From IMG/VR virus record IMGVR_UViG_3300046513_000171: a DNA stretch of 64,000 nt. One strand, 5' to 3'. The notes under the pieces are model-generated. The model ran no database searches. It was given only the letters and a program-made list of their open reading frames with translations, and was not told the origin of the DNA. Numbering within the stretch: the first letter of the stretch is position 1; every line of letters starts with the position of its first letter. The stretch is from an uncultured virus (IMG/VR IMGVR_UViG_3300046513_000171). Lineage: Duplodnaviria; Heunggongvirae; Uroviricota; Caudoviricetes. Shown piece after piece: positions 19,962 through 64,000 of the stretch. Made by a program: the position numbers and the translations under genes.

Positions 19962-19964
19962 GCA

Positions 19965-48621: not shown

Positions 48622-48662
48622 GTGGGGTGTCCTCCTTTGGGACTGGGACGTAAGGGACAGGG

Positions 48663-49673: not shown

Positions 49674-49681
49674 CTCGGTCT

Positions 49682-50080: not shown

Positions 50081-50091
50081 GATGCGTCTCC

Positions 50092-50727: not shown

Positions 50728-50797
50728 TTTGTTTTTCCGATTAAAGGGATTGATAGTTTACAGCAGGGGTAATTCAAACGCCAGACTTATTGCTATT

Positions 50798-50995: not shown

Positions 50996-50997
50996 GC

Positions 50998-51228
50998 TTA
51001 CTCTCCCTTCCAGAACACCTCAACAGCCTCGAACGTCGAGTCCGGCCAGCGCTCGCGCAGCTTGACGAGCACTGCGTCCTTCAGCGCTGTGTCAAGTAGC
51101 TCTGCGTTGTGCCGGCTGTTAAGAAATCCGAACTCAGCCGGGCCTGCTGACGGCAGGTTGATCGAGTGCAGGTACTGCGGCCTGCCTTCAGAAAACAGCT
51201 TCCTCACTATCCAGCCGAATCGCTCCAT
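50998..51228 (-). CDS. Hypothetical protein
   Basis: AAGGAG RBS, 76 aa. Confidence 0.55.
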   Translation of the reverse strand: MERFGWIVRKLFSEGRPQYLHSINLPSAGPAEFGFLNSRHNAELLDTALKDAVLVKLRERWPDSTFEAVEVFWKGE

Positions 51229-51232
51229 TGCG

Positions 51233-51415
51233 CTACTCCTTTACAAATTCAACCTTCTCGCCGCGACGCGCGGCTTCAAAGTACAGTTGCTTCAACGACA
51301 GTTCACGACCGACCGCGTCCCCATCGATCACGTAGCGGGTCACGGGTATCTCGTGCTGCTCGCGCTCCCCCACTCCGCGATTCAAACGGAGGGATCTGAC
51401 GACTGTTACCTTCAT
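51233..51415 (-). CDS. Hypothetical protein
   Basis: ATGA overlap, 60 aa. Confidence 0.5.
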   Translation of the reverse strand: MKVTVVRSLRLNRGVGEREQHEIPVTRYVIDGDAVGRELSLKQLYFEAARRGEKVEFVKE

Positions 51416-51894
51416 GCCAGATCTCCGTAACGTGGAATCACCGTCGCGTCGCTCTCATACAGCAGCGTCGCATCCGCATCCTTCAGCTCGTCGCGCAGCT
51501 GCGGCGAGTCCTTGGCTACCGCGAACTCGCTGCCCAGTTTGAGCAGCACGAACGGGATCAGGTTCTCGAAGCAGTGCGCCATCACAAACCACAGCGGGCC
51601 GCGCAGGTCGGCATCGTACTGCACGCTGTTGTCGGTGAACGACTGCACGACGGCATCCTTCGCTGTGCTCGTCCACTTCCCCTTGGGCTTGAACTGCACG
51701 AGCACGGCCGGCAGCGGCGTCTTCAGGTGGTCCTCGTACATCTGCAGCGCGACCGTGTGAGCGTAGCCGAGCCGCGTCAGGTCGGCGGCGACGCGGTCGC
51801 GCCACTTGGCCAGCGTGTACGTGGGGTGCTCGACGGCGCCGCGCTGTTCGAGGATGTCGCGCCAGTGCGCGGCGAGGGGCTTGTTTCGTCTCAT
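51412..51894 (-). CDS. Hypothetical protein
   Basis: 160 aa, preceded by the palindrome copy at 51907. Confidence 0.6.
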   Translation of the reverse strand: MRRNKPLAAHWRDILEQRGAVEHPTYTLAKWRDRVAADLTRLGYAHTVALQMYEDHLKTPLPAVLVQFKPKGKWTSTAKDAVVQSFTDNSVQYDADLRGPLWFVMAHCFENLIPFVLLKLGSEFAVAKDSPQLRDELKDADATLLYESDATVIPRYGDLA

Positions 51895-51961
51895 GGTGTG
51901 GTCCGTTCGGAAATTTCCGAAAAAATTTTGACTCGCCCGAAGCTATTGTTCGGACCCCTAT

Positions 51962-52357
51962 TTAATCGTTGACGGGAACCTTCGTGATCGCGCGGTGCTG
52001 CGCGGGCATCGACTTCGTCATGACGCCACGGTCGTACTGGCCGACGAAGATGTGCCACAGCTCGCTACAGTCTCGGCCGCCGTAGCAGACCACGAAGCGC
52101 GCCGAGATCAGGTGGTCGCCCTTGCCGATCTGCGGCGCCATCACATCCTGCTGTCGCACACGGTAGAACGTGCGCGGGTCGAGGCGCACGGAGGCGTTAG
52201 GCTCGTGCTGCGTGACTGCGTAGATCTCGACCTCGCACTCGCCGTCACGCCACATCAGGCCGCCCTGCGCATGGATGATGTCGCAGCCCTTCGGCAGGCT
52301 GGTCGTGCAGGTGTCGTCCTCTTCAAAGCGCAGTATGAAGCGCGAGACGTAGCTCAT
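51962..52357 (-). CDS. Hypothetical protein
   Basis: 131 aa; LPKG..I…R.F…WHIF pattern of a small phage family. Confidence 0.55.
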   Translation of the reverse strand: MSYVSRFILRFEEDDTCTTSLPKGCDIIHAQGGLMWRDGECEVEIYAVTQHEPNASVRLDPRTFYRVRQQDVMAPQIGKGDHLISARFVVCYGGRDCSELWHIFVGQYDRGVMTKSMPAQHRAITKVPVND

Positions 52358-52486
52358 GCCGCACCCCGCAGCGCCGACTCATTCACCGTGTACTGGCGCC
52401 CGACGCAGGCTGCGACGATCGTATAGCGCGTCTCGGCCCCGGGCCACGTGTGCACCGTCTGCACAGTCAGTGGCAGGGCCTCCCCG

Positions 52487-52846
52487 TCAATCATGACGCG
52501 GTCGTGCTCCGCGAACTTTGGTCTGTTCATCTTCGTTCTCTTGCAGGTTAGGTGTTGCATTGAAAAGCTGCTCGTACACCTGCGCACCGACGGTCGTCAG
52601 GTGCCAGTTGTTACGGCGATTCTCGGTGCTGGCGCGAGTGAGGCCCATGCGGCGCAGCGCCTTGAACGCGCCGTACACGAATACCATGTTGCCGCTGGCT
52701 GGCATGTCCCGGCGCGCTTCGGGCATCAGTACTTCCTTGGCGCGTGCCGGGCCTGCCTCACCGATCGCTTTCAGCACCTCGATATGACCACGCGAAAGTG
52801 ACAGCGCGATCCGGAACGTCGCAATCTCGGGGTGCGAGGTTGTCAT
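52487..52846 (-). CDS. Putative winged-helix DNA-binding protein
   Basis: VLKAI…GP…E…VY..FKAL…GL…WHLT..G pattern of MarR/TrmB-like wHTH; GGAG RBS. Confidence 0.5.
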   Translation of the reverse strand: MTTSHPEIATFRIALSLSRGHIEVLKAIGEAGPARAKEVLMPEARRDMPASGNMVFVYGAFKALRRMGLTRASTENRRNNWHLTTVGAQVYEQLFNATPNLQENEDEQTKVRGARPRHD

Positions 52847-52855
52847 AAAAACTCC

Positions 52856-52884
52856 AGATTAAATGGGAATTGATAGTTTGTCAA
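52856..52884 (-). promoter_or_regulatory. Sigma70-like promoter upstream of the wHTH gene
   Basis: TTGACA(52884-52879)-17 bp-TAATCT(52861-52856). Confidence 0.6.
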
Positions 52885-52890
52885 ACGGCT

Positions 52891-53874
52891 TTATTCTGCC
52901 GTTTGAATTTCAGCGGCGATGCTGGCCGCTTCTTCGAATACGTTGATCTCGATGGCGAAGCGCTCGACCTCGGCCCACGTGACGCTGTGGCAGCCGGCGC
53001 GGAAGTCGCCGTTCGGCTCGATGCTGTCGATCTCGAAGTGGCCGACGGGGACGCGGTGGCCGTTCTTCTCCCAGCGCTGCCCGCTCATGCGAACCCACTT
53101 CACGAACTGGAAGACGCGTACGGCGTGACGCAGCGGCACTTCGGCGCCGAGCGACGTCTGCACGGTCTCGGTGTCCTTCAGGCGGAACATGACCAGGTCG
53201 TTCGGCACGCCTGCCATCGTCCGACGCTCGCCCCGGCGCCACTCTTCACGCTGCAGGGCGCTGCGCTCGTCCTGAACGCGTTGCGCTTCCTTCCTCTTCG
53301 CGTCGCGCTTCTCCTTGTCGGCCTTGCGCCGCGCCTTCGCTTCGGGCGTGTCGCGCTTCTCCCACGCTTGCCTGATCTCGATGAAGTCGAGATCCACAGT
53401 CAGGCGCGGTCCCTTCAGGTCGAACCAGTCGCAGTACGTATGGACCGAGTCGGCGCGGTCGGCCATCTCCGTGATGGACGGTTCGCTGCGCGACTTCATC
53501 TGCCTGACCTTGGCCTCAGCGTAGCGGCCCAGCAGGTATTCGAGATTCCATGTGTGCATCTGCTCCGGGGTGAAGGCGGTGGGCGCCCTGCCGCCGTTCT
53601 CGCCGACGTACGGTACGTGCATGTATAGCCCGTGCAGCGCGCTTGCGAGGCCGCTCAGCTGCTTGCTCTTCGTGATCGGTGAGTATCCGTCGCTCGTGAT
53701 CAGGACCGCCGTGCGGCCGCGGCTGATGTGGTGCCACTTCGCGATCGGCGTCTGGTAGCTATACAGCCGGTTGCCGGTGAAGAAGAACGTGTGGGCGCCG
53801 TTCGAGCCCTCAGCCGTGGAGTCGGGGCCTTGCTGCGCGAAAAGGTGGCGGATCTGTGCGTTGGTGTGTGCCAT
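52891..53874 (-). CDS. Hypothetical phage protein
   Basis: 327 aa, preceded by palindrome-RBS at 53887. Confidence 0.75.
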   Translation of the reverse strand: MAHTNAQIRHLFAQQGPDSTAEGSNGAHTFFFTGNRLYSYQTPIAKWHHISRGRTAVLITSDGYSPITKSKQLSGLASALHGLYMHVPYVGENGGRAPTAFTPEQMHTWNLEYLLGRYAEAKVRQMKSRSEPSITEMADRADSVHTYCDWFDLKGPRLTVDLDFIEIRQAWEKRDTPEAKARRKADKEKRDAKRKEAQRVQDERSALQREEWRRGERRTMAGVPNDLVMFRLKDTETVQTSLGAEVPLRHAVRVFQFVKWVRMSGQRWEKNGHRVPVGHFEIDSIEPNGDFRAGCHSVTWAEVERFAIEINVFEEAASIAAEIQTAE

Positions 53875-53936
53875 GATGAAACTCCTTCGGAAATTTCCGA
53901 TTGATGAACTGCCCCGGTCGAGCCGGGGCCGAGGTA

Positions 53937-54299
53937 TTACGCTGTGGCCCAGCGGGCGTTCTCTTCCTGCACGAGGGGGCGCAGCCGGTCAGCGCGCTCG
54001 CTGAGCATGCTGACCTTCGCGCACATCTCTTCGGCGCGCGCCTCGATCTCCAGCAGCGCCAGACGGGCCTTGGCGACGTCGCGGGCGATGCGGCGGTCCA
54101 GACGGTCGCCCTCGCTCCTGCGGACGCTCAGACGGCGGATACGGGCCCGCAGCAACTCGGCCTTCGCGCAGAACTCTTCGGCCATCCCTTCGGCTTCGAG
54201 CAGCTCCACGTCCGTGCGGTGCAGCTCGCGCTCGGCCTTCAGCTCGGGCGTGTCGTTGACGACGCCCCACACGATCATCAGGTCACGAAGCATTCGCAT
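53937..54299 (-). CDS. Hypothetical coiled-coil protein
   Basis: 120 aa with internal duplication (LLE.E..AEE.CAK..L). Confidence 0.55.
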   Translation of the reverse strand: MRMLRDLMIVWGVVNDTPELKAERELHRTDVELLEAEGMAEEFCAKAELLRARIRRLSVRRSEGDRLDRRIARDVAKARLALLEIEARAEEMCAKVSMLSERADRLRPLVQEENARWATA

Positions 54300-54489
54300 G
54301 GCTCACCCCCGATCCGAAGCCGAAGTTGAACATCACGCGACCCGTCGTCGTCTCGACGTAGCCATACGCGCCTTCATTCGCGAGCTGCCTGCCCTTCTTC
54401 TTCAAGTTCTCCAGGCTCTTGCCCTCGACCACGTGATAGCGCCCGGTCTTGAGCGTCGCCCGCAGCCTGTACGTTGCTTTGATTGCCAT
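54283..54489 (-). CDS. Small basic hypothetical protein
   Basis: GGAG RBS, start MAIKATY. Confidence 0.5.
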   Translation of the reverse strand: MAIKATYRLRATLKTGRYHVVEGKSLENLKKKGRQLANEGAYGYVETTTGRVMFNFGFGSGVSHANAS

Positions 54490-54898
54490 TTTTACGTTCT
54501 CCAAGGTGGGACTGATTCACTGCGAGCAGTGAACGGATAAAGCCGAACGCGCTGCCTGCGATCTGCATGTGCTTGAGCAGAACGTTCGGTGGGCTGGCTG
54601 CTTCCAGCTCCTTTATTATCAGGTCAGCTTCGAGCAGCTGGGCGTACGTCAGGGGCGCGGGCTGGCCGGCGAGCGCTGCGTGTACCTCTTCTTCACCGGG
54701 CACACTCCAGAACCACTTCTTGCCGTCCTGCTCCAGCACGACGCCGAACTGCAGGGCGAAGCTGTTGATGACGTCGTGCTGGCGAGCTGTAGGGGGCAGC
54801 TCCGCGCGCCAGCCTTTGTAGCCTCGGCGCACATAGTCCAGATCGACAGCAGCCCCTTCGAACGCGTGGGACGCCGTTGCGTAGGGGCCGCGCTTCAT
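54374..54898 (-). CDS. Hypothetical protein
   Basis: ATGA overlap with the upstream gene; 3' end overlaps the next gene by about 115 nt. Confidence 0.5.
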   Translation of the reverse strand: MKRGPYATASHAFEGAAVDLDYVRRGYKGWRAELPPTARQHDVINSFALQFGVVLEQDGKKWFWSVPGEEEVHAALAGQPAPLTYAQLLEADLIIKELEAASPPNVLLKHMQIAGSAFGFIRSLLAVNQSHLGERKNGNQSNVQAAGDAQDRALSRGRGQEPGELEEEGQAARE

Positions 54899-55674
54899 TG
54901 CGGTGTCCAGAGCAGGCCGGTTGAATCCATCGCCGCACGGAAGCGCTGCATCAGTTCCGGGTGGCGTGCTTCGAGCTTGGCCTTCAGCTCGTCGCGCTCG
55001 ACCGACAGTTCCTCGTCCGTCGCTTCCGGCCAGACGGCGCAGCTGCGCGCGGCGTCGAGGTTGCGCTCCTTGCCCTCGCCCTCACGACACCACGGGCGCC
55101 AGTCGAGCGTGAACTCGCAGACTGGCTTCACGGCGCTGTCCGTGTACTCCGGCAGCTTGTACAGTTCGAGTTCGTTACCGTCCGCGTCGAGCGCAACGAG
55201 TTGCCACGACGGTTGCCCCGACTTGCCGTTGATGATCTGCCGCTTCTCGCCCTTGAGCAGGCCGCTGGAGTCGCGGTTACCTGCGTGGTACACCGTATTG
55301 GCGATGTATTGCAGCCGGCCGTCCGTCGACGTACCGTGCCATTTGCACAGCGCAGCGAGTTCGGGGAAGCGCTTCGAGATCGACTCGTGATCCGAGCCGC
55401 CACCGTAGTCACGCCAGGAGCCGCGAGAAAGCTCCTGGATGTCGCACGTGATGTGGAACGTGTTGTGGCTGTTTCTGCAGTCGTCATCCAGCGTGATCTC
55501 AGCCTGGATGCGCAGCCGTGCGCCGCTGCGCTTGAACTCGCGCCATTCCGACACCCACTTCTGTTGATCGAACAGCCCTTTCGTCATGCGCTCGCCGTTC
55601 GCGTTCTGCATCAGGCGGCCCTTGACACCCAGCACTTCGTGATCGTGCCAGTCACGGTAGAAACGTTCGCTCAT
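54895..55674 (-). CDS. Hypothetical phage protein
   Basis: 259 aa, preceded by palindrome-RBS at 55687. Confidence 0.75.
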   Translation of the reverse strand: MSERFYRDWHDHEVLGVKGRLMQNANGERMTKGLFDQQKWVSEWREFKRSGARLRIQAEITLDDDCRNSHNTFHITCDIQELSRGSWRDYGGGSDHESISKRFPELAALCKWHGTSTDGRLQYIANTVYHAGNRDSSGLLKGEKRQIINGKSGQPSWQLVALDADGNELELYKLPEYTDSAVKPVCEFTLDWRPWCREGEGKERNLDAARSCAVWPEATDEELSVERDELKAKLEARHPELMQRFRAAMDSTGLLWTPQ

Positions 55675-55714
55675 GTTGCATCTCCTTCGGAAATTTCCGA
55701 AAAAATTTTAGGAT

Positions 55715-55738
55715 AATCCGCACCGGATGGTGCGGATT
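55715..55738. other. 10-bp stem-loop adjacent to a palindrome copy
   Basis: AATCCGCACC-GGAT-GGTGCGGATT. Confidence 0.6.
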
Positions 55739-55740
55739 CC

Positions 55741-56055
55741 TTACTGCTCTCGTGCGTCGAAAGTCAGACGACCTCGGCCCATCGGGATGTTACCGTTTGA
55801 GTCGCGCACGAAGAAGTCACTGGGGTTAAGCGGCTTCGACGACTTGCCGTACGGCGCCCCGAACGGTGCAGTGATCTTCACCATCCGTCGCGGGATGCGG
55901 CCTGACTTCACCATCCGGTCATGGATGTAGTAGTCATAGTCGCTGCCGGGGCGGGACTTGCGTTTCTTGCTGCGAATCCACTGGCTGTTACGGCGCCGCG
56001 CAGCCTTCACGCGCGGGTCGTGCCAGGGTTCACGCTTGACGTGGTTTGCTTTCAT
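55741..56055 (-). CDS. Basic hypothetical protein
   Basis: 104 aa, Arg/Lys-rich, ATGA overlap. Confidence 0.5.
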   Translation of the reverse strand: MKANHVKREPWHDPRVKAARRRNSQWIRSKKRKSRPGSDYDYYIHDRMVKSGRIPRRMVKITAPFGAPYGKSSKPLNPSDFFVRDSNGNIPMGRGRLTFDAREQ

Positions 56056-56231
56056 GTCTTCACCACCATAAAGACCTCGCGTTCTTCGACGCTGGCGATG
56101 AAGTCCTTGAACGGGTCGGACGACTGAACGACCATCTCGATCGCCGCCGCACCAGCTTCGTCTTCATTCTCAGCTTCTACTTCCATTGTGTAGCGGATTT
56201 CCTCTTCCACCGTTACTGTGAACTTTGCCAT
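56052..56231 (-). CDS. Small acidic hypothetical protein
   Basis: AGGAG RBS; VEAENEDEA motif. Confidence 0.6.
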   Translation of the reverse strand: MAKFTVTVEEEIRYTMEVEAENEDEAGAAAIEMVVQSSDPFKDFIASVEEREVFMVVKT

Positions 56232-56380
56232 CACTTGTCTCCTGACACAGGGATCACGGCGTTAAGGCAGAGAATCACGAGAGCGAGGATAAACAGCCAC
56301 GCCGCATGAAACTCGTCACCTTCGAGATTGACGTAAATGCCCGCGACGAGGGTGACCGCTGCGCCGGCGAGGGCGAACAT
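56231..56380 (-). CDS. 49-aa two-TM membrane protein (not in the ORF track)
   Basis: MFALAGAAVTLVAGIYVNLEGDEFHAAWLFILALVILCLNAVIPVSGDK; TAATG and TGATG overlaps with both neighbours. Confidence 0.65.
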   Translation of the reverse strand: MFALAGAAVTLVAGIYVNLEGDEFHAAWLFILALVILCLNAVIPVSGDK

Positions 56381-56817
56381 TACTCACTCTCCGCAGCGTC
56401 ATGTTCCTTCTTCGGCTCACCGTCCTCGAACAGCGTCACAGCCTCGCCTTTCGCGCGGTTGCCGTCGAGCACCGTGGACTTGACCCAGGCGTCGTACTCT
56501 TCGTTTGCCTTGACCTCGTCATTGCCCTTGTAAACGCTGCCGACGTTACCGACGACGACCTCGAAATACGGTCGATCGCTGAAGTTGATGAACACGACAG
56601 TCGCACTACCCCGCGGCACGAGCTTGATCATGTCGCCGTAGTTCTGGTTGTCGGTGCGCACACCGCTCAGACCGAGCGCTTTCTTTGCGGCAGTAACCAG
56701 CTGCCGGTCGGTGTGGCCCTCTTCCATGAAGACGGTCTCACGCTTGACCCAGCAATAGTTGGCTTCGCCGCTCATTGTGTCGGTGTACTCGACATCAAAG
56801 CGAATCTTGTCAGCCAT
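56380..56817 (-). CDS. Hypothetical protein
   Basis: 145 aa, palindrome-RBS at 56829. Confidence 0.7.
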   Translation of the reverse strand: MADKIRFDVEYTDTMSGEANYCWVKRETVFMEEGHTDRQLVTAAKKALGLSGVRTDNQNYGDMIKLVPRGSATVVFINFSDRPYFEVVVGNVGSVYKGNDEVKANEEYDAWVKSTVLDGNRAKGEAVTLFEDGEPKKEHDAAESE

Positions 56818-56855
56818 TTCGTTCTCCTTCGGAAATTTCCGATTACAGAGGTTCT

Positions 56856-57149
56856 TTAGTGCGTAGGGATGTCGATCAGCCTGACTTCACATGCGTCCAC
56901 GTTAAACCCAAGCCGGTCGATGAATCTGTCGACCTCGGCCTTGCTCGCGAACGGCCCATAGAAGCTGAAGCCGTCTGAGATCGTGCCGTAAATGACGATG
57001 AACGGGCACTCATCAGATCCGTTCAACTCATTTGCTACCGCCTTGGCCTGTTGCTCGGTCAGACCAACCACGAACGTACGCGGCGGGATCGCAGATGAGT
57101 CCATAACCTCCCATCCGTGCGGGATGTTTTCGTAGGCTTCGTAGCTCAT
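56856..57149 (-). CDS. Hypothetical protein
   Basis: Start MSYEAY via ATGA overlap; shares I.YG…DG….GPF with 61966..62313. Confidence 0.6.
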   Translation of the reverse strand: MSYEAYENIPHGWEVMDSSAIPPRTFVVGLTEQQAKAVANELNGSDECPFIVIYGTISDGFSFYGPFASKAEVDRFIDRLGFNVDACEVRLIDIPTH

Positions 57150-57496
57150 GCGCGCACCCAGTACGTTTCGCCGTCGTAATTGACCTGCTTGTAGTCCTGC
57201 TTGAGCGCGGTCGCTGCCTTCTCCCAGTTGATGCAGTCGTACGGCCAGCCCGACGTCGGCCCCATACCGCTCGCGTAGTCTTCGCACCACGCCTCGAAGT
57301 GCGAGTCACGGATCAGCAGCCATTCGCGCTCGCCCGACGACCCGTCCGCGTCTTCGAGGACGCTGCGCAGATTCGACAACTCGTCCATGTCGTCGAAGTC
57401 AGTGGGGCTTTCCTTCAACTCGCCCGCGTAATAGGCAATCGAGGCCAGCACTTCGTCGCGCTGAATCGTGTTGTTCATGTTGGTGACATCAGCCAT
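57146..57496 (-). CDS. Acidic protein resembling the ArdA antirestriction C-terminal domain
   Basis: D/E-rich; INWEKAA.AL..DY..V..DG..Y resembles ArdA IDYEA.ARDL; variant palindrome-RBS at 57508. Confidence 0.4.
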   Translation of the reverse strand: MADVTNMNNTIQRDEVLASIAYYAGELKESPTDFDDMDELSNLRSVLEDADGSSGEREWLLIRDSHFEAWCEDYASGMGPTSGWPYDCINWEKAATALKQDYKQVNYDGETYWVRA

Positions 57497-57530
57497 TTCG
57501 TTCTCCTTTGGAAATTTCCGATTGATGGGG

Positions 57531-57926
57531 TCAGGCTTCCTGCAGTTCGCGCCTGTTGTTCTGCGTCACCCGCTTCTTTGGGTCCGTCTTGATCAGGTAG
57601 TCATCGCGATTACCCACGATCCACCTCGGTGTGTGGCCCAGCCCGCTCCACGTCTTGCCCGATGCCGGGTCTACGTACTTCGGCGGATAGACCTTCTTCG
57701 GCTTCTGCGCCGTGAACGTCTTCTCGCTCTTCTTGACCTTGTTCGGCGGCACCTGCTGCGGCTTGACGAAACCGAGATCGACCGTGGTCAGCGAGAACTC
57801 GTCGATGAGCGCACGGCAGGTCTCGATTGCGTCCTTGGCAGCCAGACGCCGCAAGTCCTCGATTTCGGCGTCGAGTTTGGCACGGCGCGCGAGCAGTTCG
57901 CGGTAACGGGTTTCTTCTTTCTTCAA
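57531..57926 (-). CDS. hns: H-NS family nucleoid-associated protein
   Basis: N-terminal Y.ELLA….L..EIE coiled coil; C-terminal PPKY.DP.SGKTWSG.G..P.W DNA-binding motif. Confidence 0.9.
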   Translation of the reverse strand: MKKEETRYRELLARRAKLDAEIEDLRRLAAKDAIETCRALIDEFSLTTVDLGFVKPQQVPPNKVKKSEKTFTAQKPKKVYPPKYVDPASGKTWSGLGHTPRWIVGNRDDYLIKTDPKKRVTQNNRRELQEA

Positions 57927-57927
57927 C

Positions 57928-58449
57928 TTAAAGCTCCTGGTTCTTGATACGGTTGCGCAGCCACTTCGCCAGATCTACGTTGCTGCGCAGGGTGATGTCA
58001 ACCTTCGGCAGGGCGAACCCGCCGCGCTCGCTCCAGAACTCATCCACCTTGGGTCCGAGCATGACAACGTTGGTGCTGCATACGTCGTAGTAGCCGTAGC
58101 TGACGAACGCGCTGACGATGCGGTGGCGCAGCTCCCGCGCGTTGAGCTTCTCATCGAGCCAGCCGCACGCGGAGAATGCGTTTTTCACCCGCGTGTCGCC
58201 CATCTTCTCGTCGACGTTGACCGTCAGTTCCTCGATCCAGAACAGGTTATCGGGGCCGCCTGCATCGCTGCACGGCACCACACGCCGCGCGTCGACGTAA
58301 TACGGCCAGTTATCGAGGTTGTAGAAGTAGCCGCCGTTCTCGATGTTCACGTCGCCGCTGTAGAACCAGCGCGGCTTCTTCTTGCCTTTGCTGATGCTGC
58401 TCATCCAGCGGCTGACTTCGGGGTCAGTGGTTTTTATCGTTCCAAACAT
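57928..58449 (-). CDS. Hypothetical protein
   Basis: 173 aa, palindrome-RBS at 58461. Confidence 0.7.
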   Translation of the reverse strand: MFGTIKTTDPEVSRWMSSISKGKKKPRWFYSGDVNIENGGYFYNLDNWPYYVDARRVVPCSDAGGPDNLFWIEELTVNVDEKMGDTRVKNAFSACGWLDEKLNARELRHRIVSAFVSYGYYDVCSTNVVMLGPKVDEFWSERGGFALPKVDITLRSNVDLAKWLRNRIKNQEL

Positions 58450-58450
58450 G

Positions 58451-58729
58451 TCACTCTCCTTCGGAAATTTCCGAATCGTCCAGCTTGGGATTCTCTTCCA
58501 CGTAACGGCACACGTCGCTCGTGCTGGTGCCCATGTCGCTCTTCACCTCGTAGAGAATGATGCGCTTGACACTACCCTGCAGCTGCCGCGCGAATCCTAG
58601 ACCCTCTCCTAAGCTCGTCACCTCAAAGCCGTGGTTATCGTCCTTGTCGATCCACTCGACGACGTCCCACGACCAGCGCTCATCGCTGACCATGTCGACT
58701 GTTTCACGAATCTCGACCTGTGTTGCCAT
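58451..58729 (-). CDS. Hypothetical acidic protein
   Basis: True start MATQVEI after palindrome-RBS at 58741; C-terminus SEISEGE is encoded by the next palindrome. Confidence 0.65.
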   Translation of the reverse strand: MATQVEIRETVDMVSDERWSWDVVEWIDKDDNHGFEVTSLGEGLGFARQLQGSVKRIILYEVKSDMGTSTSDVCRYVEENPKLDDSEISEGE

Positions 58730-58730
58730 G

Positions 58731-58973
58731 TCACTCTCCTTCGGAAATTTCCGATCGTGGTTGTGCTGCCCTATCAAACGCCTGTACACCCTCCAGCGCG
58801 AGCTGCCACTTCACGCGCCGACCACCCACATACGTCGCCACGCCCTCCCCGCCGCCGAACTTCGGATACTTGCGAAACTCGATCACGAAGCCGTGAATCG
58901 TGAAGTGGGCGCGCGGCTGTACGCTACTCAACACCTGCTTGAACGCCTGCAGGAAAAGCTCTTCGCCAGTCAT
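58731..58973 (-). CDS. Hypothetical protein
   Basis: 80 aa, ATGA overlap; C-terminus SEISEGE is encoded by the palindrome. Confidence 0.55.
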   Translation of the reverse strand: MTGEELFLQAFKQVLSSVQPRAHFTIHGFVIEFRKYPKFGGGEGVATYVGGRRVKWQLALEGVQAFDRAAQPRSEISEGE

Positions 58974-59185
58974 TGCATCGAGTTCCAGACCGCCGCGATA
59001 AGCGAGATCGCCCCTGCCTTGCTGTGGCCGTTACGAAGCAGTGCGTCGGCGTGCGGCTTCGCTGCCGCTGTGAGCTTTTTCTTCAGCTCGGGCGTCATCG
59101 GCTGACCCTTCAGCGGCTGAAGATCTGTTGCGCACTGCATAAGCAAGTACGCGTCGGTGTTCTGGATTGGTTGTTGCATGGTCAC
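58970..59185 (-). CDS. Hypothetical protein
   Basis: GAGGTG RBS, about 70 aa. Confidence 0.5.
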   Translation of the reverse strand: MTMQQPIQNTDAYLLMQCATDLQPLKGQPMTPELKKKLTAAAKPHADALLRNGHSKAGAISLIAAVWNSMQ

Positions 59186-59186
59186 C

Positions 59187-59381
59187 TCACATCAATGTAT
59201 TACGGACTACGGAACGTTCCTCAAGCATATTCCGAATCCAGATGTGTCGCTGCTCACGCCATCCGCGGCCCTTGGCCTGCTTGTGTATAAGCGTATGGCA
59301 GCCTCGTATGAACTGGCGGGTGGTGCAGTGAACGCCACCCGCCGCGCGCTCGGCGCGGCAGTACTGGGCGAAGGTGGTCAT
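59187..59381 (-). CDS. Small basic hypothetical protein
   Basis: Start MTTFAQY via TGATG overlap, GGAG RBS. Confidence 0.5.
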   Translation of the reverse strand: MTTFAQYCRAERAAGGVHCTTRQFIRGCHTLIHKQAKGRGWREQRHIWIRNMLEERSVVRNTLM

Positions 59382-59950
59382 CACTTTCTCCACTTCGCGC
59401 ACTCGCGCCACTTCGCGCACTCGCGCCAGATTTCCAGATCGAGGTCGGTTGCCACGCGCAGTTGCTCTCTCGTGACGAACGTCGAACCGCCCATGCACTG
59501 CTGCCCGTGAAATCCGCCCACGTGGTGGCTCGCAAGCTTGACCAGCGCAGTCACGCCGTGGTCGTAGCGCACGATCTGGCCGAGGTACGGAGTAAGGGCG
59601 CGCTCTCCCCGCTGCGGATCGGAGTTATAGCGGGCACAAGCGTCGGGCGTGACGGCCGGAGTCGCATACTCCACATGCGACTCCAGATCGATCGCCCCGA
59701 ACAGGTTATCGACATGGCTCTCATTGATCGCGTCGTAAACCTCCGAGGGGCTAATTGGCGCGGCACCCGCCAGCAGTTTGATGTGGTCGAGCACCTCGTC
59801 GCTGCCGGCGTCGTTCATCTCCGCGCCGTCGAGCACTGCGCGCTCCAGCCGCGTTTGCAGATCCCACATGTGGATCTGCATCATCACAGCCTGACGCAGG
59901 AGTTCGAGGACTCGTGCGCGGCGTGCGTTGGCATCGATTGCCTTGATCAT
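59381..59950 (-). CDS. Hypothetical protein
   Basis: 189 aa, palindrome-RBS at 59964, ends in WRECAK x2. Confidence 0.65.
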   Translation of the reverse strand: MIKAIDANARRARVLELLRQAVMMQIHMWDLQTRLERAVLDGAEMNDAGSDEVLDHIKLLAGAAPISPSEVYDAINESHVDNLFGAIDLESHVEYATPAVTPDACARYNSDPQRGERALTPYLGQIVRYDHGVTALVKLASHHVGGFHGQQCMGGSTFVTREQLRVATDLDLEIWRECAKWRECAKWRK

Positions 59951-59978
59951 GTTACGTTCTCCTTCGGAAATTTCCGAT

Positions 59979-60212
59979 TTACTGCTTCCAGTCCACGCCG
60001 TCGGGCGGCATCACGCTGCCGTCGGGCTGGTACTCACCGACCAGCAGGCAGACGTCGTACTTATAGATATCGCCGTCCTCAGCGTCCCCGTCGCGGTAGT
60101 CAATCTCGGCCAGCTTCCGGGCCTCGGCCTCATCGTCCGCAGGCTGCAAGAAAGTGCACCACTCGTCAGCGCGGGTGTCGCGCATTACGATAAGGAACAG
60201 GTACTTTTTCAC
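59979..60212 (-). CDS. Small very acidic protein
   Basis: 77 aa, bounded on both sides by palindromes (59964 and 60224). Confidence 0.65.
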   Translation of the reverse strand: MKKYLFLIVMRDTRADEWCTFLQPADDEAEARKLAEIDYRDGDAEDGDIYKYDVCLLVGEYQPDGSVMPPDGVDWKQ

Positions 60213-60241
60213 TTCGCTCTCCTTCGGAAATTTCCGAAAAC

Positions 60242-60592
60242 TTACCCTAAAAGAAACTTGATACGCAGGCCGTCGAGCGAGTACCAGGCGACGTGCTTGA
60301 GCACTTCCTCGACCGTGATCTTCGGCGCGGTCGAATCGCCCTTTGAATCGACGCCGAGGATGAGGCCGCGACCTGCGAGCGGCTCATGCCACAGCGGGAG
60401 CAGTGAGAAGAACTGCTGTTCCTCCAGGTTGCCGAGGAGCCCGTTGTCATCGACGTACACCGCGTCGGTGCGGCTGATCTGGACGCACGTGAACGTGTCG
60501 CACTTGATCAGATCGTAGATGTGGCGATAGTCGCCTGTGTGCTCGACTTCGGTGACCGTCTTTTCGAACGGGTCGATCAGGATGCTTTTCAT
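60242..60592 (-). CDS. DUF3846-like protein
   Basis: ILIDP…IY.LI.C…YVDD.GL…PLAG..LILG.D..G.S pattern. Confidence 0.6.
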   Translation of the reverse strand: MKSILIDPFEKTVTEVEHTGDYRHIYDLIKCDTFTCVQISRTDAVYVDDNGLLGNLEEQQFFSLLPLWHEPLAGRGLILGVDSKGDSTAPKITVEEVLKHVAWYSLDGLRIKFLLG

Positions 60593-60768
60593 AGCGCCTC
60601 CAGGTAAAGCCGCAGGTGACCTTCGGCTTGCTCCAGACGCTCTGCGGCTTGCTCCAAAGTTACGGTCTCGATCTGCCCCGTGCGGGCGCGGTACTTGACC
60701 ACGCGCGCCGTGGCCAGCACAGACGCAAGGCGCTCGATCTCGGCGATCTGCTCGGGCTTCAGTTTCAT
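60589..60768 (-). CDS. Hypothetical protein
   Basis: GAGGTG RBS, start MKLKPEQ. Confidence 0.5.
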   Translation of the reverse strand: MKLKPEQIAEIERLASVLATARVVKYRARTGQIETVTLEQAAERLEQAEGHLRLYLEAL

Positions 60769-60769
60769 C

Positions 60770-60880
60770 TCACACCTCAATAAAATAAACCCACTGCCGG
60801 CCGCGCATGTGGCGGAAGCAGTGGGGGTTCATGAAACCGCCGCGGCGGTACCATTCCTCGCGCGTGACCCGGACTTTCAT
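60770..60880 (-). CDS. 36-aa basic/aromatic peptide (not in the ORF track)
   Basis: MKVRVTREEWYRRGGFMNPHCFRHMRGRQWVYFIEV; TGATG overlap; fills the gap exactly. Confidence 0.5.
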   Translation of the reverse strand: MKVRVTREEWYRRGGFMNPHCFRHMRGRQWVYFIEV

Positions 60881-61650
60881 CACAGTTCCCAGTAGCGGTA
60901 GCTATCCGTACGCACGGGCATCGTCAGCACGCCACGATCACGCCAGTGCGCAGCCTCGTGGTCCTCGATCGCTGCGTCAAGCAGTTCGGAAACTTCCGAA
61001 TCGGCCTGCGCCTTGCGCGCGTCGTTATACGCGGAGATGCAGTTGTCCATGCACTCTTCGACGGTCATGAACAGGTAGTCCTCTTCGCTACTTTCGACGC
61101 CGCCGATCGAGTCGTCATAGCCCATCTCGCACTCGTCCTCGTCGACCATCTCGACGCGAATCCACTTCCATTCCCACTGGTCGTTGCACCAGCCGCGCAG
61201 GTACTCGAAGTCCAGGCGCACAGCTTCAGCGTGGATCTCGCCAGCGGTGAGAGGTTTGTTCGGGTCACGCGTCTGGACGTCCACCCACTCCACCTTGTCC
61301 TGCCGGATGTTGTTGACGACGCGATAGGTGGACCGCTTGACGCGTCGCATTGCGCACAGTCGCTTCAGCAACTCGGCCTTGTCGTCGTCGCCCAGCCCCC
61401 AGCCGTCGCGCCTGGCGATCTTGCTGGATGCCTGGACATCGTAGAACCGCTTGCTGCCGCGGTCCTCGCACAGCACACGCTCACCGGGGCGCTTGTCGCG
61501 GCTCGTCCAGTCCGACACCACACCGTGGCCGTCGTGCTCTTTCCACGGCTCGCCCATGTCACCATCGCCCTCGATGGTGACCTTGAACGAGTGGCCCTTG
61601 TATTCGTACACGTCGCCAGCGGCTGACCAGTACTTTTGCGTTGCTGACAT
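60880..61650 (-). CDS. Hypothetical phage protein
   Basis: Start MSATQKY after palindrome-RBS at 61662, 256 aa. Confidence 0.7.
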   Translation of the reverse strand: MSATQKYWSAAGDVYEYKGHSFKVTIEGDGDMGEPWKEHDGHGVVSDWTSRDKRPGERVLCEDRGSKRFYDVQASSKIARRDGWGLGDDDKAELLKRLCAMRRVKRSTYRVVNNIRQDKVEWVDVQTRDPNKPLTAGEIHAEAVRLDFEYLRGWCNDQWEWKWIRVEMVDEDECEMGYDDSIGGVESSEEDYLFMTVEECMDNCISAYNDARKAQADSEVSELLDAAIEDHEAAHWRDRGVLTMPVRTDSYRYWEL

Positions 61651-61685
61651 GATGCCCTCCTTCGGAAATTTCCGATTGGTACTGC

Positions 61686-61934
61686 TTACCACAGCTGAAT
61701 TTCAGCGCCGCACAGGCGGTGCTTCACACACTCCGCACGCGCCCACGCCTCGACTTCTTCGATCGTCTCGATGCAGCGCAGGCGCGTCTCGCGGCAGTAG
61801 TCCATCACCTTGCCGTCGTGCTGCACCCTGAACACGACCTGCCAGTTCGCGTCCTTCTTCCACTCGCTGGCGAGGTCTTTGTCGTTGAAACGGTGCGTGA
61901 TGATCGCCGTGCCGGTTATTTCGAACTTTGCCAT
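61686..61934 (-). CDS. Hypothetical protein
   Basis: Start MAKFEIT after palindrome-RBS at 61949. Confidence 0.65.
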   Translation of the reverse strand: MAKFEITGTAIITHRFNDKDLASEWKKDANWQVVFRVQHDGKVMDYCRETRLRCIETIEEVEAWARAECVKHRLCGAEIQLW

Positions 61935-61965
61935 TGCTATGTTCTCCTTCGGAAATTTCCGATTG

Positions 61966-62313
61966 TCAGTCTGCTTCGATCTCTTTGACTTCAACCACAC
62001 GCCAGTCCGTCATGCCCGTAGTCTTCTCCGCTTCCTTGAGCGCGGCGTCATAGTCATCGAACGGGCCTTCGAGCGTCAACCCGTCGAACGCATTGCCGTA
62101 CGCAATCACGAACTGCGGCACGCGTGTGTTCTGCTTCTCGAAGTACGCCTCGATGTCGGCGATGCGGTTGCGCATCTCTTCACGATCCTCGTCGGTGTAT
62201 TGGTGGCACTCACCGCGCTCCATGTTGTCGAGGTCTGCCTTGAGCGTAGCCAGCAGCTCGCTCTCGATATAGAAAGCGACCGCCGTGTCGTCTGCAAAGT
62301 GCTTGTACATCAT
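61966..62313 (-). CDS. Hypothetical acidic protein
   Basis: Start MMYKHF after palindrome-RBS at 62323. Confidence 0.65.
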   Translation of the reverse strand: MMYKHFADDTAVAFYIESELLATLKADLDNMERGECHQYTDEDREEMRNRIADIEAYFEKQNTRVPQFVIAYGNAFDGLTLEGPFDDYDAALKEAEKTTGMTDWRVVEVKEIEAD

Positions 62314-62348
62314 GTCTCTCCTTCGGAAATTTCCGATTGGTGCTGCGG

Positions 62349-62627
62349 TTAATCGCGCAAAACCTTCTGCGCCTTGTAGATCCACGCGCCGCGCTCGTGC
62401 ACGGTGGTAGCTTCCTGAACAAGCTCGCGAAGTACCTGGTTATCTGCCGTGAGCTGATTAATCTGCTCGTCTCGTGTGTCGCGACCTTCCTTGCGCATGC
62501 GCTCACGCAGGTGGAAGAAAAGCTCGGTGCGGTTCGCTGCATCTGCCGCGACGTTTTCGATAAACCACCACAGCGCTTGCGCGAGTGCCTGGCCGTCGAG
62601 GTATGCCTTGGTCTGTTCGGTGTTCAC
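62349..62627 (-). CDS. Hypothetical protein
   Basis: GTG start after palindrome-RBS at 62639. Confidence 0.65.
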   Translation of the reverse strand: MNTEQTKAYLDGQALAQALWWFIENVAADAANRTELFFHLRERMRKEGRDTRDEQINQLTADNQVLRELVQEATTVHERGAWIYKAQKVLRD

Positions 62628-62655
62628 TTCGGTCTCCTTCGGAAATTTCCGAAAA

Positions 62656-62916
62656 TTACTGCTGGTTCAGGTAATCCAGAATGCAGTGCTTCGCCGCGCG
62701 CATGTCAGGCTCGGGCGTGTTGTAGCTCATGCTGAAGCATTCGAGATCCGTCGCTGCGAAGTGCGGCGCAGCCTTGATATTGATCGTGCGTGCGCCACGC
62801 TGCCACTCGAAATACACGCCGTCGTTGGAGGTCGTGAAGTACAGGTACTCATGACCGTTGCGCTTGACGGTGCGCTCCAGGTTGATGTGGGCGTACCTCA
62901 CCTTGGGTTTTTTCAC
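62656..62916 (-). CDS. Hypothetical protein
   Basis: GTG start after palindrome-RBS at 62928. Confidence 0.65.
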   Translation of the reverse strand: MKKPKVRYAHINLERTVKRNGHEYLYFTTSNDGVYFEWQRGARTINIKAAPHFAATDLECFSMSYNTPEPDMRAAKHCILDYLNQQ

Positions 62917-62956
62917 TTCGGGCTCCTTCGGAAATTTCCGATTGGTGCTGCGGTTG

Positions 62957-63295
62957 TTACTTCCAGAGGTGCTGCACCGTGACGATCAGGCCGACCATCG
63001 CGATGCCTACGATGTACAGCTTGTTCGTCAGGCGCTGCTCGATACCGTCGACGTGTGCCTTGAGCAAAGCAATGTCGGCCTTCAGATCAGATCTGGCCGC
63101 AGCCAGGTCTGCTTTCGTCGCGGCAATGTCGGCCTTCAGATCGGTCTTGAGCAGCGCCACGTCAGCCTTCGTCGCGACTGCGTCCGTCAGGCCCTTGTTG
63201 AGCGCGGTCACCAGGATCTCGGCGCCGCGCTCGGTCATGCCGCCCTCAGACGTGAGCTGCTTGATGAGTTCGTGTGTGTCGTTGAAAACGGGCAT
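62957..63295 (-). CDS. DUF1640/CCDC90-like coiled-coil membrane-anchored protein
   Basis: F.DTH…L…G…AE…ATKAD repeats and a C-terminal TM helix; AAGGAG RBS. Confidence 0.65.
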   Translation of the reverse strand: MPVFNDTHELIKQLTSEGGMTERGAEILVTALNKGLTDAVATKADVALLKTDLKADIAATKADLAAARSDLKADIALLKAHVDGIEQRLTNKLYIVGIAMVGLIVTVQHLWK

Positions 63296-63305
63296 GACAG
63301 TCTCC

Positions 63306-63515
63306 TTAATCAACCGCGCGATGCACAACCTGCGTACCCACCGGTTTGCCGTCGATCATCTTCACGTCGGTCTCAGCCAGCGTCACGCTGACCATGTGGT
63401 GCTTCGACTTCGGCGTTTTGAACTTGACCAGCGCCGCGACCTTGGCGTCGTAAAGCGTGTTCGCGTAGATCTCCGCGCGCTGGCCGTTGTGCGAAAAAGC
63501 GATATAGCCGTTCAT
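63306..63515 (-). CDS. Hypothetical protein
   Basis: Start MNGYIAF after palindrome-RBS at 63527. Confidence 0.65.
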   Translation of the reverse strand: MNGYIAFSHNGQRAEIYANTLYDAKVAALVKFKTPKSKHHMVSVTLAETDVKMIDGKPVGTQVVHRAVD

Positions 63516-63540
63516 CTTGAACTCCTTCGGAAATTTCCGA

Positions 63541-63993
63541 TTAATGCTGCTCGACGATACTGCCATCAATGCGCACGACAGCGGCTACGTCCAGTTCGCT
63601 GTACTCCTTCGTGCACTGGTCCTCAGCCTCTTTCGCGCTCTTTGCCCACAGGCCGCGATACCAGCGCGTCTGGGCCACGCCGTTCAACCCGAACACACGC
63701 CAGAACTCCACGCGCACGAGCAGGTCTTCGTCGAGCGTAGTGGCTGTGCCGTCGTGCCATCCTGAAACCAGACCATCTTCATCGATCTTGCACTGGGAGC
63801 AGCCGTACGTCACGCGGCCGTCCTCGCTGGATACGGTCAGGATCTCGAACAGGTTCATCGACCACACGCCCGTCGTGCGCACCCTGTCCCCCACCTCGAA
63901 CTGCGGGCAAGGCTTGAGTGATGAGATATCGACAGGGAACGGGTTTCTGACACCCACCTTCACGCTGCGCAGCTGCGGCAGGCCGGCGTACAT
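63541..63993 (-). CDS. Hypothetical protein (start uncertain, near window edge)
   Basis: F.VGDRVR SH3-like stretch; its stop abuts the palindrome at 63540. Confidence 0.5.
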   Translation of the reverse strand: MYAGLPQLRSVKVGVRNPFPVDISSLKPCPQFEVGDRVRTTGVWSMNLFEILTVSSEDGRVTYGCSQCKIDEDGLVSGWHDGTATTLDEDLLVRVEFWRVFGLNGVAQTRWYRGLWAKSAKEAEDQCTKEYSELDVAAVVRIDGSIVEQH

Positions 63994-64000
63994 GCCGACC

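Follow-up and report, generated by a model that had tools for sequence, protein, structure and literature searches.

The window analysed here is a stretch of 64,000 nucleotides (nt) from an uncultured virus of the class Caudoviricetes (IMG/VR record IMGVR_UViG_3300046513_000171). Its right-hand part contains an array of small genes punctuated by a perfect 14-base-pair (bp) palindrome, most copies of which are fused to a ribosome-binding site. The phage is a rhizosphere siphovirus of a Gram-negative host, and the window has a G+C content of about 62%. The left 25 kb carry the genes for head, tape-measure, and lambda-J-like tail proteins on the plus strand. From 64 kb down to approximately 25.6 kb the genes are on the minus strand, with the array first and the replication genes after it, encoding a helicase, a primase, a DNA polymerase, a ligase, a Mre11/Rad50-type nuclease, and a thymidylate synthase. 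The closest cultured phages reach 40% protein identity in the tail J-like protein and at most 30% in the DNA polymerase, and a megablast comparison of positions 56000–64000 and 1–20000 with 50,697 phage records gave no match. Parts of the array are contained in 21 rhizosphere or soil metagenome runs, none of which is listed as an RNA run. A literature search for the exact 14-mer gave no match, and a broader search of titles and abstracts found no report of this motif among the matches listed.

The exact palindrome, TCGGAAATTTCCGA, occurs 14 times in the window, against an expectation of 0 (100 shuffles, largest count 0). Copies with one mismatch at 57508 and 60986 raise the number to 16, against 0.12 expected. 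All 16 copies are confined to positions 51907–63540, and positions 1–51906 contain none, even with two mismatches allowed. An earlier note, made from the sequence alone, had listed the same 14 exact positions, had named precisely these two variants, and had seen no copy in the first 51 kb; the census reproduces each of these statements. The array comprises the following elements, given for each module as palindrome, ribosome site, spacer, start codon, and length of the open reading frame (ORF) in amino acids (aa).

51907–63540, minus strand: portion of the array within the window; it comprises 16 copies of the palindrome and some 34 small genes, every one on the minus strand; the array continues past the right window edge
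63513–63540, minus strand: junction module; palindrome 63527–63540, AGGAG, 6 nt, ATG 63515, 69 aa
62914–62941, minus strand: junction module; palindrome 62928–62941, AGGAG, 6 nt, GTG 62916, 86 aa
62625–62652, minus strand: junction module; palindrome 62639–62652, AGGAG, 6 nt, GTG 62627, 92 aa
62311–62336, minus strand: junction module; palindrome 62323–62336, AGGAG, ATG 62313 or 62310, 115 or 114 aa
61932–61962, minus strand: junction module; palindrome 61949–61962, AGGAG, 9 nt, ATG 61934, 82 aa
61648–61675, minus strand: junction module; palindrome 61662–61675, AGGAG, 6 nt, ATG 61650, 256 aa, phrog_11104
60986–60999, minus strand: one-mismatch copy, centre A>G on the minus strand; inside ORF 60880–61650, with no ribosome site and no start codon
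60210–60237, minus strand: junction module; palindrome 60224–60237, AGGAG, 6 nt, GTG 60212, 77 aa
59948–59977, minus strand: junction module; palindrome 59964–59977, AGGAG, 8 nt, ATG 59950, 189 aa
58727–58754, minus strand: junction module; palindrome 58741–58754, AGGAG, 6 nt, ATG 58729, 92 aa; within the 3' end of the coupled ORF 58973–58731
58447–58474, minus strand: junction module; palindrome 58461–58474, AGGAG, 6 nt, ATG 58449, 173 aa
57494–57521, minus strand: junction module with a one-mismatch palindrome, 57508–57521, stem position 13 G>A on the minus strand; AGGAG, 6 nt, ATG 57496, 116 aa
56815–56842, minus strand: junction module; palindrome 56829–56842, AGGAG, 6 nt, ATG 56817, 145 aa; shares a 35-nt tract with the 57521 module
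55672–55700, minus strand: junction module; palindrome 55687–55700, AGGAG, 7 nt, ATG 55674, 259 aa
53872–53900, minus strand: junction module; palindrome 53887–53900, AGGAG, 7 nt, ATG 53874, 327 aa, phrog_7247, DUF8033-like
51892–51920, minus strand: last array copy; palindrome 51907–51920, weak ribosome site ACGGAC, ATG 51894, 160 aa

Read on the minus strand, 14 of the 16 window copies (13 exact ones and the 57508 variant) have AGGAG immediately after them and, 6–9 nt further on (4 or 7 in one ambiguous case), the ATG or GTG of an ORF of 69–327 aa, which is the layout that the earlier note had described for fourteen copies. Across four records we compared 57 copies in 53 distinct contexts, 36 of which have AGGAG at zero spacing. 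In these 36, information content is about 2 bits per position over the 14+5 nt and almost nil beyond them, except for A/T at −1 and −2. A site of the GGAG, GGGA or GGAA type lies within 7 nt of the palindrome in 41 of the 53 copies, and the remaining 12 have none. Of the 41 copies with such a site, 13 have the previous stop codon 0–1 nt ahead of the palindrome, and most have it no more than 16 nt away. About one third of the copies have a weak 5' extension (TAAC-GCAGCA-like). At 58474–58451, the end of the upstream gene reads the palindrome and ribosome site as ...SEISEGE*, and in both the 58461–58474 and the 58741–58754 modules the same letters serve as coding sequence, palindrome, and ribosome site.

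The roughly 15 start-linked window copies head approximately 34 genes, organised in translational units of one to four genes. Array genes that lack a copy overlap with or directly adjoin the gene ahead of them, through ATGA-type junctions; several of them were identified by eye and had been missed by a crude gene caller. The spacings of 260–374 bp reported for the densest part are correct; the accompanying statement that each unit is one gene does not always hold. The intervals between copies measure 260–1980 bp and consist of ORFs with ribosome sites. CRISPR arrays have repeats of about 23–50 bp, non-coding spacers of similar length, and usually neighbouring cas genes. With its 14-bp repeat and gene-filled intervals, the array is not CRISPR, as the earlier note had recognised.

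The 19-mer composed of the palindrome and AGGAG was used as a query for related contigs. It identified three IMG/VR contigs, one of which contains multiple copies. The record G001 is the same phage as the window (99.996% identity over 24.7 kb) and provides no sequence beyond the right end of the window, past which the genome would continue for about 15–20 kb, judged from G002. The record G002 has 85,240 bp and is rated complete; a further record, G004, joins the end of G002 to its start at 99.99% identity, which gives a closed map. G002 contains 27 copies (25 exact and 2 variant), all within 63396–80866 (17.5 kb), and its other 67.7 kb contain no copy. Its structural and replication genes are colinear with those of the window at 72–84% identity, and the consensus of the motif is unchanged between genomes whose flanking genes have diverged to this extent. 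The position of the copy at 51907–51920 is kept in G002 (63396) and in the record G003 (7290). The leftward block of G002 begins near 81.9 kb, and rightward genes begin at 82.35 kb. Therefore, the array is the promoter-proximal part of one long leftward block and, judging from its position and gene content, presumably the early region.

Outside this lineage, the 19-mer was found in metagenome and genome collections at 23 and 6 loci, respectively, with one copy each and in unrelated organisms. These numbers are at the level of chance (about 4 loci were expected in the genome set), and the collections provided neither a further array nor a clue to the host. None of 24 further viral loci retrieved with a DUF8033-like profile contained the motif, and a tblastn search of 36 window-array proteins against these loci revealed only one other shared protein. 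The scan of the whole genome and of relatives that the earlier note had proposed thus found the array in this lineage, to which it is specific, and only isolated chance-level matches in the metagenome and genome collections.

The copies without a ribosome site are informative about the role of the palindrome. Seven of the 27 copies in G002 lack a ribosome site, and they are grouped at the promoter-proximal end. Two are inside a single 152-aa ORF, where they are read in two different frames, and one is inside the first large early gene. The G002 and G004 versions of the protein encoded by that gene are 45% identical, and their DNA is not alignable. At the aligned residues RKFP, both genes nevertheless carry the 14-mer with 14 of 14 positions identical, using AAA and TTT codons, in a genome whose called genes have a third-position G+C of 0.7–0.9. 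No conserved start codon follows the palindrome in this gene. The site-less copies and the retention of the in-gene copy between 45%-identical proteins indicate that the palindrome has a role of its own. Judged from this comparison, the in-gene palindrome is under nucleotide-level selection for something besides translation initiation.

Two further copies without a ribosome site flank a non-coding hub.

L014:14400–15070 (G002 79650–80300) and L016:1150–1830 (G004): non-coding hub of about 650 bp, just upstream of the first large early gene

The hub contains at least seven GACTTGTGC boxes in both orientations, one inverted pair of which forms a hairpin with a 17-bp stem, an AT-rich stretch with TATAAT, and three occurrences of the word CCGCAGC. 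The hub may serve as a replication origin or as a promoter/operator region for early genes. In the window genome, its counterpart lies past position 64000. At 77992–78005 of G002 (L014:12752–12765), a copy is followed directly by ATG without a ribosome site; the small hydrophobic ORF that it opens may have a start of the leaderless type or be a matter of chance.

The reading that we rank first, with a probability of roughly 45%, is that the palindrome is a binding site for a sequence-specific factor, more likely a dimer on DNA than an RNA-level reader of a hairpin. Between the two regulatory models of the earlier note, an operator and an RNA hairpin, a DNA site is the favoured answer and an RNA element the second. 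Copies that lack a ribosome site or lie within genes imply a role apart from translation starts, a point in favour of a factor-binding site. None of the 14 positions varies between lineages in which about one quarter of the flanking positions differ. The central AATT is unable to pair in a hairpin, yet it is itself palindromic and invariant. The outer half-sites, TCGG-N6-CCGA, are one helical turn apart, which is the classical arrangement for a dimeric helix-turn-helix protein.

Under this reading, the palindrome, effectively W-TCGGAAATTTCCGA-A, would act in cis to label a single temporal class of genes, namely those in the long leftward early block of this lytic siphovirus. One trans-acting factor would recognise the site sequence-specifically, most likely as a symmetric dimer that contacts the TCGG-N6-CCGA half-sites in double-stranded DNA. 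By analogy with the stoperators of Cluster A phages and other dispersed operators, the factor could shut off the whole early block through a roadblock or silencing. Stoperators act in the regulation of transcription, according to the excerpt of PMC3203893 that cites them. In the compact intergenic gaps, the site is placed flush with a consensus AGGAG, and stop codon, palindrome, ribosome site, and start codon form a conserved 19-nt junction at the head of every cistron that lacks translational coupling.

Several observations weigh against the DNA site. The AGGAG at zero spacing in more than half of the contexts (36/53) is not explained by a DNA operator alone, and neither is the presence of a copy at nearly every uncoupled start of the array. 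At −1, the copies linked to a ribosome site are biased towards A (29 A versus 12 T), whereas 10 of the 12 others have T (Fisher p = 0.0003; 0.002 after removal of the sites with an abutting stop codon). An RNA hairpin with a 5-bp stem and a 4-nt loop is predicted at −4.9 kcal/mol, with a pair probability of at least 0.57 in 15 of 16 native contexts. The early shut-off function is proposed by analogy, and the putative untranscribed location of the two copies that flank the hub depends on a terminator-like hairpin with a poor T-run. Pfam scans of 31 and 30 ORFs detected no DNA-binding family apart from an H-NS-like protein, and HTH_3 and ParB_N were not found in G002, so we rejected a ParB/KorB-like or HTH_3 protein as the binder. 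The five variant copies (two in the stem, three in the centre) show no compensatory change and do not discriminate DNA from RNA.

The single protein with a recognisable DNA-binding domain in the array was also considered as the binder.

57531–57926, minus strand: H-NS-like protein; H-NS C-terminal domain (Pfam E 1.7e-7), coiled-coil N-terminus

By our own alignment, the motif matches 7 of the 10 positions of tCGATAAATT, the published H-NS site. However, it lacks the central T-A step, which is stressed in the excerpt of PMC2094087, and in the protein the minor-groove RGR motif is replaced by LGH (GRGH in G002). The protein was therefore set aside as a weak lead only. Judged from its altered RGR motif, it would fit interference with host H-NS rather than silencing of DNA. 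The nearest solved structure is 2l92_A (E 8e-7), which we take to be a Burkholderia protein and which would then be a hint to the host, probably a beta-proteobacterium of the rhizosphere.

The second reading, possible but doubtful, is that the element acts in RNA, as a hairpin (UCGGA-AAUU-UCCGA) directly 5' of the Shine-Dalgarno sequence in a polycistronic early transcript. The hairpin might insulate the ribosome site from GC-rich upstream coding sequence and so make translation independent of context; it might be a 5' stabiliser or processing site; or it might be the handle by which a trans-acting RNA-binding protein or nuclease, such as a T4 RegB-like enzyme or a translational repressor, switches the early cistrons together. 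The exact register of AGGAG, with the start codon 6–9 nt further on, fits this reading, as does the presence of a copy at essentially every uncoupled cistron start and at no coupled start. In the predicted hairpins, the ribosome site is left mostly unpaired. The −1 base fits this reading as well: at the 10 site-less copies with U, the stem would be extended by a sixth pair, and A is present at 29 of the 41 linked copies, where U would pair with the first A of AGGAG. At 57521, the one stem-broken copy of the window, a prediction pairs the released UUUCC with GGAGA, and the ribosome site's unpaired fraction drops to 0.25. T4 provides a precedent, since RegB cleaves GGAG in early translation-initiation regions, according to the excerpt of PMC3014915.

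Against the RNA reading, the copies that lack a ribosome site or start, including the constrained ones inside ORFs, would be purposeless if the hairpin were an insulator, and the loop is palindromic and invariant although pairing does not need it. None of the five variants is compensated, and two uncompensated stem breaks persist at gene-heading copies. An alternative hairpin that would sequester the ribosome site is weak (−2.0 versus −5.7 kcal/mol). The element had no Rfam match with E up to 1. A RegB homologue search of G002 gave no match, and the control genomes were likewise without a match.

It is quite improbable that the copies are phage-specific, delayed-early promoters, at which a phage factor would redirect the host RNA polymerase and AGGAG would lie in a very short leader. 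The minus strand of the array has no sigma-70-like promoter; within 48000–64000, two promoter-like sites were found against 3.0 expected, both on the plus strand. A word of about 19 nt is strongly conserved ahead of many genes, which is typical of phage-specific promoters, and the G002 copy at 77992 has a leaderless-like arrangement. However, no RNA polymerase or sigma-like family was detected in the ORFs scanned, a symmetric promoter would fire in both directions, and copies inside ORFs would give internal transcripts. With a transcription start 3' of the palindrome, there would be hardly any space, or none, ahead of the ribosome site, and nothing is conserved upstream of the palindrome.

The copies act as recombination joints. 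Contigs of four other runs were aligned on positions 50001–64000. The joint 56844>57528, present in runs X9 and X11, skips 683 nt and has a shorter side of 53 nt; in X11 it lies in a 6.2-kb contig with a depth of 12. Precisely the unit that the 57508 copy heads (genes 57496–57146 and 57149–56856) is removed, and one intact palindrome is left. The two copies involved, 57521 and 56842, share an identical tract of 35 nt, the longest of any pair in the window, so the recombined pair matches homology-driven recombination. Endpoints of joints lie within 10 nt of a copy in 12 of the 30 listed, against 3.9% expected (p ~5e-10), although the endpoints are not independent, since many joints have short sides made mostly of the motif. 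Among the loose ends listed, 5 of 20 distinct places are within 10 nt of a copy, against the same expectation of 3.9%. Joints with short sides of 22–37 nt were rejected as true deletions: the short side is mostly motif and probably represents the next copy in a contig with different cargo, which would depart from the window at one copy and rejoin it at the following one, and only the endpoint on the long side is informative.

Comparison of relatives gives a similar picture. G003 and G002 are 97–99% identical, and their homology ends 3 nt upstream of a copy; the 325 nt of G003 past that point have no match in G002, G004 or the window. G003 also has an additional gene of 292 nt, which ends at a distance of 2 nt from a copy. 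The earlier note had asked whether breakpoints between relatives fall at the repeats. In the G002/G003 and G002/G004 comparisons, three of eight breakpoints are within 20 nt of a copy, an enrichment over the 8% expected (p = 0.02), and the other five are away from copies. For 13 of the 30 array genes called in the window, G002 has no homologue. Among the units with homologues, four are in reversed order on the same strand: the window has the homologues of 74926, 75900, 76745, and 77175 in this order, and G002 has 77175, 76745, 75900, and 74926. The identity of the reordered units is 48–69%, partly over part of their length, and some may be paralogues. An orientation-preserving permutation is what would follow from exchange between direct repeats, and a single inversion would not produce it. 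The recombination genes of the phage include those for the Mre11/Rad50-type nuclease, a Dda-like helicase, and the ligase, and there is a weak RecU-like match. Because each junction is a direct repeat of 19–35 nt, ordinary homologous recombination deletes, inserts, and reorders units. The exchange of units is a consequence of the repeats and not of a dedicated recombinase system.

The earlier note had proposed integron-like or microhomology recombination sites. Its recombination part holds, in that units are lost, breakpoints occur at the copies, and the order of units is changed; an integron-like site-specific system does not. The proposal that the palindromes are sites at which a dedicated site-specific recombinase moves cassettes would account for direct repeats that bound gene units, for a permuted order with orientation kept, and for a population variant that lacks exactly one unit. 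However, it is largely refuted, and we assign it only a vanishing probability. Phage_integrase (PF00589) was found in none of the four related records, which include the complete G002, but in 14 of 14 control genomes; Resolvase was found in none of the same four records and in 12 of 14 control genomes. No integrase or resolvase family was detected by Pfam among the 61 ORFs scanned from the window and the related loci. The attC sites of integrons are long imperfect inverted repeats of about 57–141 bp that fold with extrahelical bases, whereas the site described here is a perfect 14-bp palindrome without conservation beyond 14+5 nt. The system is thus not integron-like, because neither an integrase or resolvase nor an attC-like structure was found. 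Moreover, crossover took place between the two copies with the longest plain homology, and numerous breakpoints are at other places.

Recombination might also be the whole explanation. In this improbable case, the palindrome would be a self-propagating junction without a regulatory role, kept uniform by recombination or gene conversion, and would let the phage swap early accessory genes, a form of evolvability for which the promoter-early stem-loops (PeSLs) are a precedent in the excerpt of PMC2839356. Recombination at the copies is directly seen, the pair with the longest tract is the recombined one, and subsets of copies have common flanks of 28–35 nt, suggesting recent exchange. Concerted evolution, however, accounts for uniformity within a genome and not for an identical 14-mer in lineages that are about 25% diverged, and it leaves unexplained the in-gene copy kept between 45%-identical proteins. 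It gives no reason for the homology to be a perfect palindrome, and five of the eight breakpoints between close relatives are not at copies.

The favoured factor-binding site can be combined with the observed recombination in a view that we offer as a speculation, less probable than either the DNA or the RNA element. The 19-nt module would have two jobs, as an address label for a factor that switches about 25 early cistrons and as a connector for moving accessory genes. The factor, of phage or host origin, could read the site in DNA or in RNA; because the palindrome is its own reverse complement, the same protein, or another copy of the transcript, could do so. An early accessory gene could be cut out, pasted or moved with a ready ribosome site by the general recombination of the phage. 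If this view is true, the array would be a functional counterpart of integrons that needs no recombinase and serves host-takeover genes, and the palindrome CGGAAGTWACTTCCG of distant soil phages would point to a wider, undescribed family of factor-site pairs.

Short exact repeats at the starts of early phage genes have been reported before, as start-associated sequences (SAS), Cluster O repeats, and PeSLs, with an established mechanism for PeSLs alone. The array is a real, lineage-specific feature and a variant of this recurring phage theme. What is new is the combination of a perfect palindrome fused to a ribosome site, confinement to one temporal block, a Gram-negative siphovirus, site-only copies beside start-linked ones, and the loss of a unit in the population. 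The case is unusually clean, with a perfect palindrome, one gene class, and limits of the array set by a complete relative. Copies with and without a ribosome site, side by side, separate two possible roles, and natural population variants capture recombination from copy to copy. The array illustrates how, without a dedicated recombinase, an uncultured phage turns over its repertoire of early, presumably host-directed genes. The binder, if found, would offer a compact means of co-regulating many cistrons.

The PeSL cassettes of T4-type phages, reportedly treated also by Comeau et al. in 2014 (PMC4122927), likewise act as recombination joints that bear expression signals. The comparisons that follow draw on excerpts of the cited papers. 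PeSL cassettes were described by Arbiol et al. (2010, PMC2839356) as repeated intergenic modules with a small stem-loop that end in a Shine-Dalgarno sequence and start codon, and they are concentrated in the plastic early region ahead of small genes of unknown function, which is the arrangement found here. Insertions, deletions or replacements between close relatives are bounded by PeSL copies, as are three of eight breakpoints here, and in both systems one genome can have a single copy where another has a unit with a copy on either side. PeSLs differ in being about 100 bp long and loosely conserved, with a sigma-70 consensus promoter and a terminator, whereas the module of the array is an exact 19 nt without −35 and −10 elements. 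Its 5-bp hairpin (−4.9 kcal/mol) leads into AGGAG and has no T-run, and terminator-like sites are not enriched in the array region (18 versus 13.8 expected). PeSLs belong to T4-like myoviruses, whereas the array is in a siphovirus with about 62% G+C. Without a sigma-70 promoter or terminator, the module is no PeSL, strictly speaking.

The SAS/ESAS of Cluster K mycobacteriophages (Pope et al. 2011, PMC3203893) likewise place a conserved word with AGGAG a few bases before starts (3–7 bp for SAS, against 6–9 nt after AGGAG here), in the non-structural half of the genome, in one orientation, and mostly followed by ATG. They head unrelated gene families, and a subset has a weaker upstream extension, comparable to the TAAC-GCAGCA-like one. 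The excerpt of PMC3203893 leaves binding of DNA or RNA by a host or phage factor possible. A SAS-like motif of Microbacterium Cluster EF phages (PMC7302621) is comparable. However, the SAS is the asymmetric 13-bp GGGATAGGAGCCC with AGGAG in its middle, whereas the palindrome is 5' of AGGAG. Also different here are the 12 of 53 copies without a sequence resembling a ribosome site, the Gram-negative host, and the service of copies as recombination joints.

The 17-bp dyad repeats of Cluster O phages (Cresawn et al. 2015, PMC4351075) resemble the palindrome itself, down to its arms: there are more than 30 invariant inverted repeats in which TCGG...CCGA arms surround an A/T centre, with a higher density in the leftward non-structural operon and some copies within ORFs, in phages that are not obviously temperate. 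They are predicted to bind a dimeric DNA-binding protein. The Cluster O repeat reads TGTTCGG-N3-CCGAACA, is genome-wide, is not linked to starts, and is reportedly seldom involved in rearrangements, whereas the repeat described here is TCGG-N6-CCGA, occupies 17.5 of 85 kb in G002, is mostly fused to a ribosome site, and takes part in rearrangements. Cluster A stoperators (via PMC3203893 and PMC4351075) are also present as tens of short sites in tiny intergenic gaps of transcribed regions, with a proposed action at the DNA level that blocks transcription across a region. They are asymmetric, follow the direction of transcription, and are targets of the prophage repressor in temperate phages, in contrast to the symmetric site of the array and to G002, in which no HTH_3 repressor family or integrase was found. 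The RegB/S1 sites of T4 (Uzan and Miller 2010, PMC3014915) resemble the array as a class-specific signal at the ribosome sites of early genes, consisting of GGAG with an A-rich 3' context, through which one factor inactivates the early messages jointly. RegB needs no upstream hairpin, and secondary structure protects from it.

The cargo of the array contains, besides the H-NS-like protein, one other recognised domain.

60242–60592, minus strand: DUF3846 protein (Pfam E 4e-9), translationally coupled in the unit headed by the palindrome at 61662–61675

The cargo list of the earlier note, which named H-NS, ArdA-like, DUF3846, and DUF1640 proteins, stands for the H-NS C-terminal domain and DUF3846. 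The CCDC90-like/DUF1640 match is below the Pfam cut-off (28 versus 33.5 bits), and no ArdA family was detected among the 31 window ORFs scanned with Pfam. A host-takeover or anti-defence character of the cargo is unproven; H-NS-like and DUF3846 are the only domains recognised. The most conserved protein of the array is the DUF8033-like one (52891–53874, minus strand, 327 aa, phrog_7247). Caulobacter phages of the phiCbK-like type encode homologues of it in their terminal-repeat (early) regions, and Brevundimonas, Rhizobium, and Erythrobacter phages also encode homologues; its C-terminal ~90 aa stand alone in other phages. The Protein Atlas neighbours of this protein and of the product of 51412–51894 are annotated only as 'hypothetical' and DUF8033.

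Four distant soil-phage contigs retrieved through the DUF8033-like protein (L053, L060, L063, and L068) contain the 15-bp palindrome CGGAAGTWACTTCCG in 8–11 dispersed copies each, with up to two mismatches. It has CGGAA/TTCCG arms, as in the window motif, and a centre 3 bp wider. A few copies are just before a ribosome site and start, and most are elsewhere. The palindrome was not found in the other loci with a DUF8033-like protein and has no clear link to that protein.

The sole long palindrome-free gap within the array, 52891>52846, bears another shared motif, AAACTATCAAT(T)CCC(A)TTTAATC, which is on the minus strand at 52858–52879 and at 50749–50770. It is placed 20–30 nt ahead of the starts of genes 52846–52487 and 50727–50092 (MazG-like). 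The copy at 52858–52879 is preceded by TTGACA, and the one at 50749–50770 is kept before the MazG homologue in G002 and G003. The word ACTATCAAT occurs twice in the window, against 0.09 expected. The motif may be the promoter of another temporal class. On the plus strand, the tape-measure gene shows an internal, tandem-like self-similarity at 6472–6917 (about 76% over 305 nt, offset 141 nt), visible as off-diagonal matches in the comparison of the window with G001.

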